Below are positions 33,828 to 51,565 of a stretch of DNA of 64,000 nt, one piece after another. A program made the translations under genes and the position numbers. Within the stretch, counting starts at the first letter, position 1, and each line of letters begins with the position of its first letter. The notes beneath the pieces are model-generated. The model was not told where the DNA came from. It ran no database searches and saw only the letters and a list, made by a program, of their open reading frames with translations. This stretch comes from Thermoproteota archaeon (lineage in GTDB: Archaea; Korarchaeota; Korarchaeia; Korarchaeales; JAOZGB01): positions 192,001 through 256,000 of the forward strand of contig JAVCBU010000006.1 of the NCBI GenBank assembly GCA_037917685.1. Reading direction: 5' to 3'.

Positions 33828-34106
33828 ATGTCACTGTTCGTAGTTGGGAGGGTCTGCACAAAGACTAAAGGTAGAGAGAAAGACAGAAAATGCGTGATTG
33901 TCGATGTAATAGACAAAAACTATGTGTTAATCACCGGACCCAAAAAACTAACAGGGGTAAGGAGGAGACGGTGCAACATAAACCACCTAGATCCGCTTCC
34001 AGTAGTGATAGACATAGATAAGAATGCATCGGACGAAGACGTTATTAAAGCCCTGTCTCAGACCGAGATATATAAAGAATTCACAGGTAAAGGGGGCAAA
34101 TCTTGA
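33828..34106 (+). CDS. rpl14e: Ribosomal protein eL14
   Basis: GRVCTKTKGRE...VIVDVIDKN...TGP; start moved to ATG 33828. Confidence 0.92.
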   Translation: MSLFVVGRVCTKTKGREKDRKCVIVDVIDKNYVLITGPKKLTGVRRRRCNINHLDPLPVVIDIDKNASDEDVIKALSQTEIYKEFTGKGGKS

Positions 34107-35082
34107 ACCAATTAATAGTAAGGGAAGAGGCAGCAACAAATCCTTCATACGGCTCTTACCCTGAGGAGCGAGCTATAAAAGACTTGCTAAACTCGTCTAT
34201 CATCGTACTCGACAAGCCTCGAGGCCCCTCGTCTCATACTGTTACAAAATGGGTTAGAAGTATCCTAGGAATCAAAAAGATAGGACACTGCGGGACTCTT
34301 GAGGGCAAATAGCCCGGAGAAATCCCAAAGTAAGCGGAGTTCTACCTCTTGTAATCGGTAAATCAACCAGAATAGCTAAGATTATCTCAGGCTTTGATAA
34401 AGAATACGTGGCCCTAATGTACCTTCATGGTGATGTGGGATATGAAAGATTAAATGAGGTAATAGCGAAGTTTCATGGTGACATATTCCAAAGACCTCCC
34501 GTAAGATCATCGGTGAAGAGAAAGTTACGGGTAAGAAAAATCCATAAGATAGATCTCCTTGAGTACGAAGATCGTTACGCCTTAATACGAGTAAAATGTC
34601 AAGCCGGAACCTACATTAGAAAACTGATACATGATATCGGTCAGGTGTTACTTGTTGGGGCAAGCATGTCTGAACTAAGAAGAATAGCCGCTGGGTCTTT
34701 CACTGAGAATGAAGCTGTAACTCTCCAACAATTACTTCAAGCTTATAATACCTGGCGTGAATCAGGAGACGAAGCCCCTCTTAGAAGAATATTTAGGCCC
34801 ATGGAATATGTACTGAGAAAGCTTCCAATGATAATTATTAAGGATACAGCTGTTGACGCAATCTGTCACGGGGCACCTCTCACTGTAAGAGGAATCTCTA
34901 AACTATCACCGAATATTCAGCCCAAAGATATAGTAGTTATAATGACCTTAAAGTCTGAAGCAGTGGCTATAGCTGAAGCATCTATGTCATCTGAGGAGAT
35001 GTTATCTTCATCCCGGGGTATAGCTGCGAAGCCTATGAGAGTTCTAATGGACAGAGGAGTTTATCCTCCTGCTTGGCGTTAA
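34103..35082 (+). CDS. cbf5: H/ACA pseudouridine synthase Cbf5, spliced: join(34103..34301,34322..35082)
   Basis: LDKPRGPSSH; GHCGTL|DPKVSGVL after intron removal; GTYIR; PUA domain; reading frames join exactly. Confidence 0.95.
34302..34321 (+). other. 20-nt BHB mRNA intron in the catalytic Asp codon of cbf5
   Basis: GGGA-CTCT-TG|A-GGGC-AAATA-GCCC-GGAG-AA|A-TCCC is a strict helix-bulge-helix-bulge-helix. Confidence 0.93.
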
Positions 35083-35243: not shown

Positions 35244-35693
35244 ATGCCAGAAATGGAGAGAAGAGTTATAAGAATAGCTGGTACAACATTGGATGCGGAG
35301 AAGAAAGCACTTGTAAGCCTTACAAAGATACCGGGGATAGGTTTCACTTTATCCAACGCCATACTTAGGAGACTAAACCTCGATCCACAAAAGAAACTTT
35401 CCGAATACACCAACGAAGAAATAGAAAGGCTAGAGGAATTCTTCAAAGACCCCTATAAATACGAGCTGCCTTCGTGGCTTTATAATAGACAGAGAGACCC
35501 TATAACAGGTAAAAATTTGCTTATTCTAGGATCTGATATTAAACTGTACCAGAAGATAGATATAGACCGGCTTAAAAAGATGGGTTCATACAGGGGACTA
35601 AGACATTCCCTAGGTCTCAAGGTTAGAGGGCAAAGGACACGGACAACTGGCAGGAGAGGGCCAACAATAGGATATGTTAGGAAGAAGAAGTAG
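35244..35693 (+). CDS. rps13: Ribosomal protein uS13
   Basis: [21 protein letters not shown] motif. Confidence 0.96.
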
Positions 35694-35695
35694 GT

Positions 35696-36205
35696 GTGAA
35701 AATGGGAGACCCGAAGCAACCGAGGAAGAAATATCGAAGACCAAGAAAGCCCTGGGACAAACAGTACTTAGAATGGTCTATAAAACTGGTTGGAGAGTAT
35801 GGTCTAAGAAATAAAAGAGAACTATTAAGGGCACACCATGAAGCCAGCAGGGTTCGAAGGCTGGCGAGAATTCTACTCTCCCACACCGAGAGTAGGAACA
35901 TCAAGTTGGAAGAGCAGTTGCTGTCAAGGCTTAAAAGATTTGGAATAGTACCTGACGACGCTGTACTTGACGATGTACTCGACGTTACAGCTGAAAACTT
36001 TCTGAGAAGAAGACTCCAAACAGTAGTTTATCTCAAAGGATATGCTAAAACACCCTACCAAGCGAGGCAGCTTGTAGTACACGGACATGTCCGTGTAAAT
36101 GGGAGAATAGTCAAGATTCCTTCGTATCTTGTTAGTGTTGAGGAGGAAAATACCATAGAAGTTGATAAAGAGATACTGAACAAAATAATGGGTGAACAGT
36201 CATGA
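35696..36205 (+). CDS. rps4: Ribosomal protein uS4
   Basis: [18 protein letters not shown] and ARQLVVHGH motifs. Confidence 0.96.
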
Positions 36206-36603
36206 GTTCAAGTAAAAAGAAGGAGCACATTGGTATAGCACACATTTATTCGTCATTCAACGATACCATCGTCCATATCACAGATCAAACCGGAGCTGAG
36301 ACAATAGCAATATCGTCAGGGGGAAGATTTGTAAAAGCCGACAGGATGGAGGGCAGCCCGTATGCCGCTTTTAAAGCAGCAACTGAAGCTGCAAATATAG
36401 CGAAGAAGAAGGGGATAACATCTTTAATAGTCAAAGTCAGAGCCCCAGGAGGTTTAGGTCCTAGAATTCCAGGTCCTGGAGCCGCCGGCGCTGTAAGGGG
36501 ACTTGCAAGGGCTGGAATGAAGCTTATAAGAATAGAAGATGTGACGCCAATACCTCACGATGGAACTAGAAGGCCACATGGAAGGAGAGGTAGAAGAGTT
36601 TAA
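36202..36603 (+). CDS. rps11: Ribosomal protein uS11
   Basis: [13 protein letters not shown] motif. Confidence 0.96.
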
Positions 36604-37393
36604 AATCTCATGCTTCTATTTCTCTATAGGAACTTTGGAAAGTATATCCTCAAAGATCAAAGAATACTACATATCAAGAGGATTTAAGATTGTAGGCGTT
36701 TCAAAATTTAGAGGTTTTTACTTAGAAAACCCCAAGGGGAGACTAATACTAGCTCTAATATTTGACCCACTCATAGATAACATAGAAGAGTTAGTCTCTT
36801 CAATAAAACGAAACATTAGTGATGTAAATATTATTCAGATATGGTTACCTGAGGGCGCAGAGGATTATGTCTCTACGTCGGTCTCACGCAATATTGAAAA
36901 AGGGCTTTTAATGAGAAAGGTCTCTCTGGTACCCTTTACACAGGCTGAAATTGAGTGGAAACCATACCCTTTGGAATTAAATGTAGAAATCCATAAGAAT
37001 GATGTTCAATCCGAAAAAGAGGTGATAGCCAAACAGACATATGCCGAATCTCCCATCCAAGAGTCCTCCATTAACTTGTTATTGCAGAAGTACTCTGAAA
37101 CGATCCAAGAACTAATATCCAGATTTGAATCTCTAGAAAAAACCCTAAAAAGACTAGAGGAGACATTAAAACAATCACAACCGCAACAAGTTATAAGCCA
37201 TACAACTGCTCGTGTTCAATACAATCCACCAGCGAAAGACGCGTCTAAAGAGGTAATAATAGAAAAAATCAGCACATCTGATTTACCAAAGGCCAGTCCT
37301 CACAAGGTTGGAAACATAAACGCGCTTGATGAAGCTGTCAAAAACAACCCGTGGTTCTCGATACTGAAAGAGAAAAAGAAAAGACAAAACTAA
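36560..37393 (+). CDS. Uncharacterised coiled-coil protein with an arcadin-2-like C-terminal tail; start uncertain (overlaps rps11)
   Basis: Alpha/beta N-domain, central coiled coil, low-complexity linker and C-terminal [16 protein letters not shown]. Confidence 0.55.
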
Positions 37394-37428: not shown

Positions 37429-38226
37429 GTGGAGATCAAAATTATTGATGCCTCAGAGCATCGGATAATATTTGAACTTTCAGATGCTAACCCGGCAATA
37501 GCCAACGCATTAAGGAGGACAATCATTTCTGAAGTTCCAACGATGGCTATCGACTACATAGTTGTGATAGAAAACAACACAATGTACTTTGACGAGCATA
37601 TAGCACATACACTTGGAATGATCCCCCTTACCACCGATCTTGAAAAGTATAATTTACCTGAGGAATGTGAATGCGGAGGATCCGGCTGCCCCCTCTGTAC
37701 TACTAGGCTTATTTTAGAGGTAGAAGCTAGAGAAGACAATACAATTGTATATTCGGGGGATCTTAAGCCCCAAGACCCGATGATAAAGCCAGTAAGATCC
37801 GATATCCCTCTATTCAAACTGAATAAACAAGACCGCATAGTTCTAGAAGCAATAGCGAGACTCGGTAGAGGAAAACAACATAGCAAATGGCAGCCAGTGG
37901 GGCCAATTGGCTATAAATACTACCCTATTGTTGAGATTGACAACTCCAAATGTAACTTATGCGGAGAGTGCATTAAGGTATGCAATAGGAGAGCCCTAAT
38001 CTTGAAAGATACAGAAATTGTTTTAGATCCATTAAAATGTTCCCTATGCAAGCTATGCGTTGAAGCATGCGACAGGAAAGCGATTTCATTAAAGATGGAC
38101 GATACAAGATTTATATTTCAATTTGAAACTACCGGTGCACTTAATCCTCAACAAATACTTCTAAAAGCCATAGAAATATTAGTCGATAAGCTTGAAAGCT
38201 TTAAAAAACAGGTAGCCGCAACGTAG
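37429..38226 (+). CDS. rpo3: RNA polymerase subunit Rpo3 (D) with ferredoxin-like domain
   Basis: ANALRR..SEVPTMAID and HSKWQP motifs; two CxxCxxCxxxC motifs. Confidence 0.95.
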   Translation: MEIKIIDASEHRIIFELSDANPAIANALRRTIISEVPTMAIDYIVVIENNTMYFDEHIAHTLGMIPLTTDLEKYNLPEECECGGSGCPLCTTRLILEVEAREDNTIVYSGDLKPQDPMIKPVRSDIPLFKLNKQDRIVLEAIARLGRGKQHSKWQPVGPIGYKYYPIVEIDNSKCNLCGECIKVCNRRALILKDTEIVLDPLKCSLCKLCVEACDRKAISLKMDDTRFIFQFETTGALNPQQILLKAIEILVDKLESFKKQVAAT

Positions 38227-49254: not shown

Positions 49255-50295
49255 GTGAGAAAACTAAAAATTGGAATCATCGGATGCGGGTCGGTAGCTT
49301 TAAAGGGGCATATTCCAGCATGGAACTTGTTTAACAATGTTATCCTAGCAGCGGCAGCGGACCCAGATCCAGTTGCAAGGAAAAAATGTAAGAAATATGT
49401 AGATAACCTTTACGATGACTACAGGGAAATGTTAATGAAGGAGGAGCTTGATATCGTTGACATATGCACTCCTCCTCATTTGCATCATGATGTGTGCTTA
49501 CATGCGGTTGAGCGTGGTGTTAATATCCTTGTGGAGAAGCCGATGGCTATATCTAAAAATCAAGCAATCGAAATGGTTGATAAGGCTCATAAATATGGTG
49601 TAAAACTTTGTGTGATGCAAAATCATCGTTATATACCCGTAGTCATGGTTGCTAAGAAGATTGTTGATAGTGGGGGGCTGGGCTCTATTGTTGGAGTTTC
49701 AGGTCAATTGTTTCTTCCTCCCCCGTTTGGCTGGACCTATTCTACGTGGCCCTTTGAAAGAAGTAAGGGGGGAGGTGTTGTCTTTAACGTAGCTATACAT
49801 GTTATTGATCTTGCTTTATGGTTTGCAGGGGACGTTGAAAGTGTTTTTGCTTATGGAGGGGATTTTCTTGGTAGAATGGACATCGAAGGATACTTTTCAG
49901 CTCTGTTAAAGTTTAATAACAAGGCAATCGGTGTAATTGAGTCGTCATGGTACAATGGAGGACTTAGGAGCACCTTCGAGCTCAGGGGAACTGGCGGCGA
50001 AATCAAAATCGACCTAAGAAATAATCATATGTTAAGGTACTCTAGCTATCTAACCCCCTATGAAGAGGTTAAATCGTTGCTGTCCAAATTTTTAAAGGTC
50101 GGATTAGAGGTTGTTAAAAAGAAATATTTTAAAGGGTTCTTAGCATACCAAGCTAGGCTTATAGGCGACTTCATAAATTCGATAGTTAACGATACCCAGC
50201 CCCCTGTGCCCGGTGAGGATGGGTTAAAATCGGTATCTGTTGCTGAGTCTATCTCACTATCTATAATAAAAAATGCTCCGGTCCGGGTTACTTAA
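49255..50295 (+). CDS. Gfo/Idh/MocA family oxidoreductase
   Basis: GIIGCG, EKP and GGG...IH.ID motifs. Confidence 0.9.
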   Translation: MRKLKIGIIGCGSVALKGHIPAWNLFNNVILAAAADPDPVARKKCKKYVDNLYDDYREMLMKEELDIVDICTPPHLHHDVCLHAVERGVNILVEKPMAISKNQAIEMVDKAHKYGVKLCVMQNHRYIPVVMVAKKIVDSGGLGSIVGVSGQLFLPPPFGWTYSTWPFERSKGGGVVFNVAIHVIDLALWFAGDVESVFAYGGDFLGRMDIEGYFSALLKFNNKAIGVIESSWYNGGLRSTFELRGTGGEIKIDLRNNHMLRYSSYLTPYEEVKSLLSKFLKVGLEVVKKKYFKGFLAYQARLIGDFINSIVNDTQPPVPGEDGLKSVSVAESISLSIIKNAPVRVT

Positions 50296-51565
50296 AAAAG
50301 ATCCACCCCTCCATCACGTTCCAGTCCCATCCATAGCTGTCTGGAACGGCAGCGCCATATACGATGGTTCCTCTCCATACTGAATACTTTGGATCTTTAA
50401 CCATTCTTACATTAACATTCTCCAGCCCTAGTTCTTTCATCATTAACTTAACCTTTGTTGGGGCATCTACAGCTATATCCGAAAGCTTCCTGGGAACCTT
50501 CCAGCTGAAACTCCCGCCGGAGAGGATAATCTGCTTATAAAGTTCAGCCTGTATTTCAACCGCGCACAGTTCAACTGCCGTTCTAATCGCTTCAGACAGT
50601 TTTGCCTTACCAGGTACGACCCTATTACCTATAACTGTGTCGTTTGGAGGTGGGAAACCTCTAGTATAATAGCTTTCAAATATCTCATGTGAAGGATTGA
50701 ACATATATTCCCCTATTAGAAATCTCTGCCATGCCTTATCGCCCATGTCTATTTCAACCATTGTTCCAGGAATCCTAAATTTTCCACTTATCCTCTCTGG
50801 GTACATTCTACACCAATCTATGGCTTTATCCAGTGCTACAGGTATTAGGCCGGCTTGTTCTTTGAAGAGAGTGACAAGCTTCTCCTCCCTAGCTAGGTCT
50901 GAATAGCCCAGATCTCTAAGAATCTGTCTTGTAATAGCGTTCGAATCACTTCCTCCACGGTTTAGAGGTATCAGAGCCGTCCTAATTATATCCCTGCTAA
51001 TAGGGGCTATTTGCGTGTTGCCGTGGCCGCCCTCAATTACAATACAAGTTGTAGCCCCCTCAGCTATAGCAACAGATAGAGGCTGAGGGATTATAGTGAA
51101 GGCTTTTATTAGTCCCGTTTCTGCCTCGACTTCCCTATGGATTTCTATAAGCCTTTCATACATATATCGTGGAGCCTGAGCTGCAAGTGCCGCAACTACA
51201 TAGTACCCGTTAAAATCTCTAAATTTTTCATCCTCCATGGGGGGTTTAAACTTCTGTATCCCGTATCTAGTAAGTTCTTTAACAACGAGCCATCCCCTCT
51301 CATCTTTTCTTTCAACTACGCCGTTCCGCATCGGATAATAAAGCCTCACAAGCTCATCTCTAGACTCTATATACTTCGGTACTTCTGGTCCTACGATGAC
51401 CTCCTTTTCCTCGTAGCCTCTTATCTCAGAAATAACACGGGACATCCTCGGGAAATACCCCCTGTTTTCTACAATTTCGGGTTTGTCACCAAGCCAGCCA
51501 GGCCCATACTTATACAACGAAGTGCCGTAGTCTTCTCCGAATACTTGAGCTACACTCCTCCCCAC
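50288..51565 (-). CDS. Crenactin (archaeal actin homolog)
   Basis: GEDYGTS, YPMRNG, EGGHGNTQ, RGG and ILSGG actin-fold motifs; W-rich C-terminus typical of crenactin. Confidence 0.9.
   Translation of the reverse strand: MGRSVAQVFGEDYGTSLYKYGPGWLGDKPEIVENRGYFPRMSRVISEIRGYEEKEVIVGPEVPKYIESRDELVRLYYPMRNGVVERKDERGWLVVKELTRYGIQKFKPPMEDEKFRDFNGYYVVAALAAQAPRYMYERLIEIHREVEAETGLIKAFTIIPQPLSVAIAEGATTCIVIEGGHGNTQIAPISRDIIRTALIPLNRGGSDSNAITRQILRDLGYSDLAREEKLVTLFKEQAGLIPVALDKAIDWCRMYPERISGKFRIPGTMVEIDMGDKAWQRFLIGEYMFNPSHEIFESYYTRGFPPPNDTVIGNRVVPGKAKLSEAIRTAVELCAVEIQAELYKQIILSGGSFSWKVPRKLSDIAVDAPTKVKLMMKELGLENVNVRMVKDPKYSVWRGTIVYGAAVPDSYGWDWNVMEGWIFFK

Follow-up and report, generated by a model that had tools for sequence, protein, structure and literature searches.

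Few prokaryotic proteins are as closely related to eukaryotic actin as crenactin. To our knowledge, its only regulator with a known mechanism is arcadin-2, which was studied in a single genus. The present work concerns a candidate partner of crenactin in Korarchaeota, the phylum to which the filamentous Ca. Korarchaeum belongs. The gene, here called X, is an open frame of 277 codons (36560..37393, + strand) located between rps11 and rpoD/rpo3. It lies in a window of 64,000 nucleotides, the whole stretch of DNA that was analysed (positions 192,001 to 256,000 of contig JAVCBU010000006.1, assembly GCA_037917685.1, a Thermoproteota archaeon). In Thermoproteales the partner of crenactin is arcadin-2; X is proposed to be its counterpart in Korarchaeota, either as a divergent orthologue or as a close analogue, with a rough probability of 0.78.

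Arcadin-2 (Rkd2) is described by Izore et al. (2016; PMC5173319) as a protein of 203 amino acids with a core, a non-conserved linker and a conserved C-terminal helix that places a Trp in a groove. Its dissociation constant for crenactin is 31 nM, and a peptide of its last 17 residues (R187-R203) is as effective as the whole protein in depolymerising crenactin. The peptide sits between crenactin subdomains IA and IIA, in the hydrophobic groove, the binding site of the D-loop. In Table 1 of the same article, crenactin (WP_011850310.1) and arcadin-2 (WP_011850311.1) of P. calidifontis carry consecutive accessions. Arcadin-2 is mentioned in Thermoproteales, marine Culexarchaeia and Caldarchaeales in three further reports (PMC9723716, PMC7613921, PMC10936438). 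A similar type of docking, which is also the one proposed for X, is described for ParR of type II ParMRC plasmid partition, an adaptor whose C-terminal helix binds the hydrophobic groove of the actin-like protein (PMC5173319). The same article draws the analogy to thymosin beta-4 and WH2 binders, in which the cleft between actin subdomains 1 and 3 is filled by a short helix that prevents the longitudinal contact. X has no sequence relationship with these binders and adds folded and coiled-coil domains, and the orientation of the thymosin helix is reported to be reversed.

The first-pass annotation had described X as a coiled coil, a flexible linker and a terminal amphipathic helix, and this anatomy was borne out by an AlphaFold2 model built on a 22-sequence profile alignment (mean predicted local distance difference test, pLDDT, 66; predicted template modelling score, pTM, 0.41). 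The N-terminal alpha/beta domain (residues 20-130, 36617..36949, order H-E-E-E-H-E-H-E) was modelled with pLDDT values mostly of 80-91. A first variable linker of low confidence (residues 136-167, 36965..37060; pLDDT < 50), unalignable across genera, leads to a long helix (residues 168-206, 37061..37177), a presumed coiled coil seen in the model and the alignment. Its conserved core reads E-L-E-x-R-h-x-L-L-E, L192 and L199 being invariant and E200 being present in at least 90% of the sequences. According to both model and alignment, a second variable, low-confidence linker (residues 207-251, 37178..37312) separates this helix from the C-terminal helices with the conserved tail (residues 253-276, 37316..37387; all these features on the + strand), the predicted crenactin-groove-binding part of the protein. 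Two terminal helices were modelled, 253-261 and 264-276. The tail of X reads ..NNPWFSIL.. near its end, and the codons of N263-P264-W265 are found at 37346-37354. Residues E258, N263, P264, W265 and L269 were invariant across the 22 X-family sequences, in which the linkers could not be aligned. Arcadin-2 (NF053561; PMC5173319) is arranged likewise, its N-terminal core being followed by a linker that is not conserved and by a short, conserved Trp helix at the C-terminus, although X is longer (277 vs 203 amino acids).

A Foldseek search against the PDB placed the N-domain in the restriction-endonuclease-like (PD-(D/E)xK-type) fold. The best matches were Rpb5 chains, led by 8q3k_E (Rpb5 N-domain; E 5.9e-4, template modelling (TM) score 0.29/0.37, 8% identity) and including several Pol II chain E entries. 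Further matches were CdiA-CT, XisH (2inb/2okf), Can2, EcoT38I, a splicing endonuclease, YaeQ, NucS and BglII, the TM-scores over the matches ranging from 0.2 to 0.5. With E-values of 5.9e-4 to 8e-3 for the XisH, Rpb5 N-domain and endonuclease-like proteins, identities of 6-19% and no conserved D...(D/E)xK, the relation is a resemblance of fold only. No catalytic D...(D/E)xK triad was conserved in the alignments of X or of the related family, and for this reason the fold is taken to be non-catalytic in X. Searches of Pfam, NCBIfam and PDB sequences with X alone gave nothing significant, only coiled-coil noise, and Pfam gave no match to the ribbon-helix-helix (RHH) model RHH_1. In the ESM Atlas, the clusters closest to X contained unnamed archaeal proteins of 224-249 amino acids at 0.83-0.84, which is below the 0.9 level and can be used as a lead only.

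The conservation of X was evaluated in 43 species genomes of Korarchaeota. With X as sole query, only relatives of the same genus were retrieved (3 proteins; 4/41 genomes), together with one weak match from another family that lies between S11 and RpoD and ends in ...DNPWAEVLKE. A profile of four sequences found matches in 24 of 40 genomes of the class. S11 and RpoD flanked the profile match in 28 of 32 loci, which yielded 23 distinct proteins of 277-369 amino acids from 23 genomes. Twenty-two of these 23 positional orthologues end in the tail (L/I)x(E)(F/I/V)xx(D/N)NPW(A/V/F)x(I/V)L(K/R/S)xK, or more generally ..E-h-h-x-[DN]-N-P-W-h-x-[IV]-L-x-x-K. In the remaining one (G021; L024 1378-2208) the tail can be read in another frame (G021:C33:17016-17132). 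This copy is therefore counted as frameshifted near its 3' end, through either an assembly error or decay. With the resulting 22-sequence X-family profile (A3), X was detected in 36 of 38 genomes of the order of the window, a figure that counts one incomplete copy at the edge of a contig. The two genomes with no match (G005 and G032) have no detectable RpoD either, and the region is therefore probably unassembled there. In the sister family, S11-X-RpoD was present in both genomes (2/2), with the tail FEDNPWAEVLL.

In the other classes of the phylum, an NPW-tail gene was found directly upstream of S25e, and not between S11 and RpoD, in 3/3 genomes (L117 2231-3181, - strand; L118 2-382, + strand; L119 1645-2379, + strand), with the arrangements L2-S19-X-S25e, S19-(HIT)-X-S25e and X-S25e. 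This is a second, independent embedding of X in a ribosomal-protein cluster. Altogether, X was present in 41 of the 43 genomes. When all 16,971 stop-to-stop frames of at least 40 amino acids in the genome of the window were scanned for NPW-x-x-[ILVM][ILVM] within 25 residues of the end, X was the only one retrieved, and its tail is not a chance occurrence. Throughout the class, X is an ancient and fixed member of the operon. The first-pass annotation had presented the gene as inserted into the ribosomal run, a wording that is misleading for a gene that is fixed in the class and that stands in another ribosomal-protein cluster in sister lineages; the reading as a recent insertion is rejected in view of the phylum-wide conservation.

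The A3 profile was scored against 1.84 billion representative proteins and gave 48 matches at E ≤ 1e-3, 26 of them at E ≤ 1e-10. Beyond the X family, these matches included proteins of 213-271 amino acids composed of an N-domain, a coiled coil and an 'LPSF[LI][KR]DNPWVEILSRRG' tail, in full 'LPSF(L/I)(K/R)DNPWVEILS(R/K)RG'. The metagenome-assembled genomes that encode them are labelled Methanomethylicota, Thermoprotei, Thaumarchaeota, Bathyarchaeota and Nitrososphaerota. When seven of these proteins were aligned with A3 by hhalign, a probability of 97.5% was obtained (E 8.2e-12), the alignment spanning the coiled coil and the tail. A metagenome scan with the seven-protein alignment retained 80 loci; at 71 of these the tail gene is directly preceded, on the same strand, by a gene for crenactin. 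Where full length, these crenactins are 50-57% identical to that of the window. Eight of the nine other loci are uninformative in this respect, since the tail gene begins within 130 nucleotides of the contig end; the ninth, a fragment of 98 amino acids, is preceded by crenactin-free DNA. By analogy with P. calidifontis, the place directly after crenactin is the position of arcadin-2.

The crenactin-adjacent proteins are also connected with arcadin-2 through the curated NCBIfam model NF053561. At E ≤ 0.01, 33 of 40 of them match this model (best E 3.5e-11), and the first member covers positions 62-196 of 196, up to the end of the profile. All scores are far below the equivalog cut-off of 290 bits. 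The AlphaFold2 model of one member (pLDDT 89) has its parts in the same order as X. Foldseek gave matches common to both models (2inb, 2okf, 8q3k_E, 2ph7, 2zyz, EcoT38I, YaeQ and 2vld), and for the crenactin-adjacent homologue the E-value against endonuclease-like fold proteins was 5.9e-5. By profile comparison, the coiled coil and tail of X were shown to be homologous to those of this arcadin-2-like family.

The predicted partner of X is encoded in the window at 50288..51565 (- strand), 13 kb away. It was identified as crenactin by its matches to PDB 4cj7/5ly3/5mw1 (E 1.5e-103) and to NCBIfam NF053560 (E 4.1e-174; 579 bits, somewhat below the cut-off of 630 bits). Its named relatives come from 'Candidatus Korarchaeum sp.' and 'Candidatus Methanodesulfokora'. 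The neighbouring genes code for Ogt, a Gfo/Idh/MocA oxidoreductase, RtcA, RPA and HMG-CoA reductase and include no arcadin, which agrees with the earlier remark that this crenactin has no arcade neighbours. In a search of the genome of the window that covered Rkd3 and Rkd4, Rkd3 gave no match and Rkd4 gave N-terminal matches at the ATPase level only. Like X, crenactin was detected in 41 of the 43 Korarchaeota genomes, so the two co-occur across the phylum; arcadin-2, too, is found in crenactin-encoding genomes. The first-pass annotation had considered that homologues of X might be common in genomes lacking actin, and this is not what was found.

The complex of the window crenactin (24-row alignment) with residues 236-277 of X (alignment taken from A3) was predicted with ESMFold2. 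The interface score ipSAE was 0.89, 0.89 and 0.90 over the runs, with a partner pLDDT of 69 and a contact agreement between runs of at least 70%. Three controls scored 0.00, 0.02 and 0.00; the one in which an unrelated protein took the place of crenactin scored 0.00. The contacts on crenactin were predicted at residues 166-172 and 401-408. The best-defined pairs join W265, L269, F266 and N263 of X with crenactin 166-172 and 402-407, the tightest being those of W265 and L269. Actin residues 142-148 and 345-350 are the walls of the hydrophobic cleft. The crenactin segment 'SVWRG' (395-399) corresponds to actin 'SVWIG' (338-342), and crenactin 402-407 therefore lie at actin 345-350. For the other wall, Q161 of the window crenactin corresponds to Q164 of P. 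calidifontis in the PDB alignment, and Q164 to actin Q137 (PMC5173319); crenactin 166-172 therefore correspond to actin 142-148. Across 24 korarchaeal crenactins, the contacted positions varied little or not at all. The tail of X is thus predicted to dock in the hydrophobic groove of crenactin, as the first-pass annotation had expected.

Taken as the arcadin-2 counterpart, X would act as follows. It would have the three-part build of arcadin-2, namely an N-domain with a degenerate endonuclease fold, a coiled coil through which it is probably a dimer, and a disordered linker that ends in a short amphipathic helix. W265, F266 and L269 would insert into the groove between crenactin subdomains IA and IIA, the site that the D-loop of the next subunit uses in the filament. 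X may therefore compete with polymerisation by capping, sequestering or depolymerising crenactin; alternatively, it may tether to crenactin whatever its N-domain holds. The gene would have departed from the actin locus in Korarchaeota and is fixed in ribosomal-protein and RNA-polymerase operons, because of which X is probably made constitutively together with the growth machinery. The two independent ribosomal-operon arrangements are compatible with selection for such co-expression. The link of X to growth rate, also put forward at first pass, is speculation.

Several observations weigh against this assignment. X itself had no match to NF053561 at E ≤ 1, and among 22 X-family members the model matched a single one, at E 0.26. 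A six-frame search of the 43 genomes with NF053561 gave nothing significant; one match of E 0.05 fell on an X-family gene. The comparison with arcadin-2 was made through this model and the crenactin-adjacent family. A comparison confined to the N-domains of the two families (X and crenactin-adjacent) aligned them in register (P 0.024), with a probability of only 2%. Since this comparison is weak, orthology over the whole protein is unproven, and the coiled coil and tail common to both families could be a transferred or convergent module. Furthermore, X does not lie beside crenactin, and the co-occurrence of both genes is weakly informative because each is near-universal in Korarchaeota. Concerning the complex, the calibration of the method had 58 of 80 solved complexes and 2 of 110 mismatched pairs attaining this mark, counts that are only rough here since custom alignments were used. 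The high score may also be partly memory, because the crenactin:arcadin-2 peptide complex 5LY3 is in the PDB. It demonstrates likeness to 5LY3 and, as a model-based result, supports binding rather than demonstrating it. The earlier proposal of an arcadin-2-like gene was thus sustained by the coiled coil and tail homology and by the predicted groove docking, but not by a match of X itself to the curated model. X would work like arcadin-2 and would share its tail module, but it differs from the family in two respects: NF053561 does not recognise it, and it lies outside the arcade cluster beside crenactin. Depolymerisation has been shown for arcadin-2; for X it is putative, and the binding is a prediction.

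The alternative that survives best takes X as an adaptor rather than an inhibitor. The dead nuclease fold and the coiled coil would hold DNA, and the tail would couple it to the ends of crenactin filaments, giving X a role in chromosome or nucleoid positioning instead of monomer sequestration. We regard this as a tentative possibility, held at clearly less than even odds. It is favoured by the finding that a coiled coil with a DNPW tail of the X type also ends RHH proteins (PF01402), winged or LuxR-type helix-turn-helix (HTH) proteins and C2H2 zinc-finger proteins. In the HTH and zinc-finger proteins the ending is a coiled coil with 'LPSF(L)(K/R)DNPWVEILSRR'. An integrase gene, a gene for a Cdc6_C winged-helix protein or one resembling the primase large subunit stands next to some of the tail genes. 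In Korarchaeota, the recorded neighbours of tail genes are phage-type integrase, radical-SAM, Cdc6_C winged-helix, TFIIB-like and primase-large-subunit-like genes. In fold, the N-domain of X and that of the crenactin-adjacent proteins are of the kind found in nucleases and DNA-binding proteins, and ParR binds the equivalent groove of ParM (PMC5173319). On the other hand, DNA binding by these N-domains is putative. Around four RHH- or HTH-tail genes no centromere-like repeat arrays were found, only short two-copy direct repeats that were treated as chance, and in viral contigs none of five pattern matches to tail proteins was confirmed. In addition, Pyrobaculum arcadin-2 depolymerises filaments in vitro at nanomolar affinity (PMC5173319), which fits a sequesterer.

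Since the tail is found on several DNA-binding scaffolds, it behaves as a portable module. The RHH, HTH and zinc-finger proteins that carry it may, by analogy, be DNA-to-actin adaptors of the ParR kind, the combination of an RHH DNA-binding domain with an X-type tail being the feature that recalls ParR. X differs from ParR in its endonuclease-like N-domain, which replaces the RHH domain, and in that its partner would be the crenactin of the host itself. The comparison with ParMRC is further limited, as neither a ParM-type actin nor centromere repeats were found. A wider proposal, which we consider doubtful though worth stating, is that the DNPW helix serves as a movable module for docking to crenactin. 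Proteins composed of a DNA-binding domain, a coiled coil, a linker and this tail would hook DNA to the host actin in TACK archaea, a device that integrated elements and plasmids would exploit. The DNA-binding part would be a degenerate nuclease fold (arcadin-2, X), RHH, HTH or a C2H2 zinc finger, and the chromosomal adaptor of Korarchaeota would be hard-wired into ribosomal-protein and RNA-polymerase operons. Because neither repeat arrays nor viral-contig copies were found, the DNA-to-actin adaptor idea stays at the level of a hypothesis. If the wider proposal were true, TACK archaea would have a system that positions or segregates DNA by means of actin.

Among the tail genes with an RHH domain are L028 1474-1899 (- strand), L124 1160-1609 (+) and L022 1042-1602 (+), and the proteins P0032-P0035, P0038, P0041, P0043, P0111, P0119 and P0127 belong to the same type. 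In Korarchaeota, the neighbours of this RHH type are radical-SAM, Cdc6_C winged-helix, TFIIB-like and phage-integrase genes, and its ParR-like build could link mobile DNA with the crenactin of the host. Examples with HTH or C2H2 domains are L027 1264-1752 (+) and the proteins P0037, P0049, P0146, P0142, P0145 and P0150. Two Korarchaeota genomes encode tail proteins of 187-221 amino acids with no recognised domain (L121 1801-2361 and L122 2023-2685, both on the - strand). These genes adjoin PF04104 (DNA-primase-large-subunit) genes, at L121 2724-3821 and L122 3162-4001, respectively, and each pair may be the replication module of an integrated element.

Much less probable is that the tail of X is a docking peptide for another hub protein of these archaea, the resemblance to arcadin-2 being merely architectural. 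Convergence makes short linear motifs recur, and X goes unrecognised by the curated model of arcadin-2. Against this, a nearly identical motif belongs to the family that stands directly after crenactin in 71/80 loci and that matches NF053561 through the profile end, and the predicted complex was specific for crenactin, as judged by the unrelated-protein control. A search for proteins with the tail only gave 4 matches among 9 candidates scored, none of them named.

It is very improbable that X is a transcription or translation factor, for instance an accessory 'jaw' like the Rpb5 N-domain whose tail binds RNA polymerase or the ribosome: its operon position (S11-X-RpoD or (S19)-X-S25e, always with ribosomal-protein or RNA-polymerase genes) would reflect such a role, and Rpb5 chains (8q3k_E and Pol II chain E) lead the N-domain matches, but the TM-scores of 0.29-0.37 are low, the crenactin-adjacent homologue gives like PDB matches led by XisH, the tail is common to genes beside crenactin and not beside RNA polymerase, and the model of the complex has a specific pose in the crenactin groove. 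An Rpb5-jaw identity of X is improbable. There is no Pfam match, and the Rpb5 match is most likely one to a generic endonuclease-like fold because the crenactin-adjacent homologue yields shared PDB matches.

The assignment of X as the arcadin-2 counterpart gives a candidate partner to the 'orphan' crenactin of Korarchaeota. It would also mean that the gene for an arcadin-2-like partner can move away from the actin locus and settle permanently within housekeeping operons. As X lies away from that locus, synteny-based surveys miss it, and so does the curated model. In a literature search outside of which lay subscription papers and supplements (e.g., the arCOG survey of PMC9723716), no account was found of an arcadin-2 homologue from Korarchaeota, of such a gene placed in a ribosomal operon of this phylum, or of a DNPW tail on RHH, HTH or zinc-finger proteins. 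The tail is a short, searchable motif that marks candidate archaeal actin-binding proteins, including DNA-binding proteins of possible mobile elements. Its presence on DNA-binding proteins makes the hypothesis of actin-based DNA segregation directly testable.

Regarding the limits of the gene, the 277-amino-acid frame that the first-pass annotation had seen in the rps13-rps4-rps11-rpo3 run was recovered, with its overlap with rps11. Three in-frame start codons are possible, ATG 36560 (44-nucleotide overlap with rps11), ATG 36578 (26-nucleotide overlap) and TTG 36635, and the start is therefore uncertain. The stop codon is TAA 37391-37393, 35 nucleotides 5' of the GTG of rpoD, which is preceded by a GAGGTG Shine-Dalgarno-like box. 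No terminator-like sites were detected on the + strand from rps11 to rpoD, and from the spacing alone we infer that X is co-transcribed with both genes. The 5' neighbour, rps11 (36202..36603, +), was identified by Pfam Ribosomal_S11 (E 9.8e-41), and the 3' neighbour, rpoD/rpo3 (37429..38226, +), by RNA_pol_L, RNA_pol_A_bac and two Fer4 motifs. The run begins, according to Pfam, with rps13 and rps4 (35244..36205, +; rps13 at 35244-35693 and rps4 at 35696-36205, both +). The gene order is rps13, rps4, rps11, X, rpoD/rpo3, rpl18e, rpl13 and rps9, all on the + strand.

Two minor observations concern other genes of this run. The gene 5' of rps13 looks split into two frames (34103-34312 and 34408-35082). 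Read by eye, both resemble parts of one protein of the pseudouridine-synthase/Cbf5 type, and the split could be due to a frameshift, to an intron or to the assembly. RpoD/Rpo3 (37429-38226) carries a 2x[4Fe-4S] insert with two ferredoxin-type Fer4 motifs (E 6e-10), and a like two-Fer4 insert is present in the RpoD of the sister family (L116, L205).

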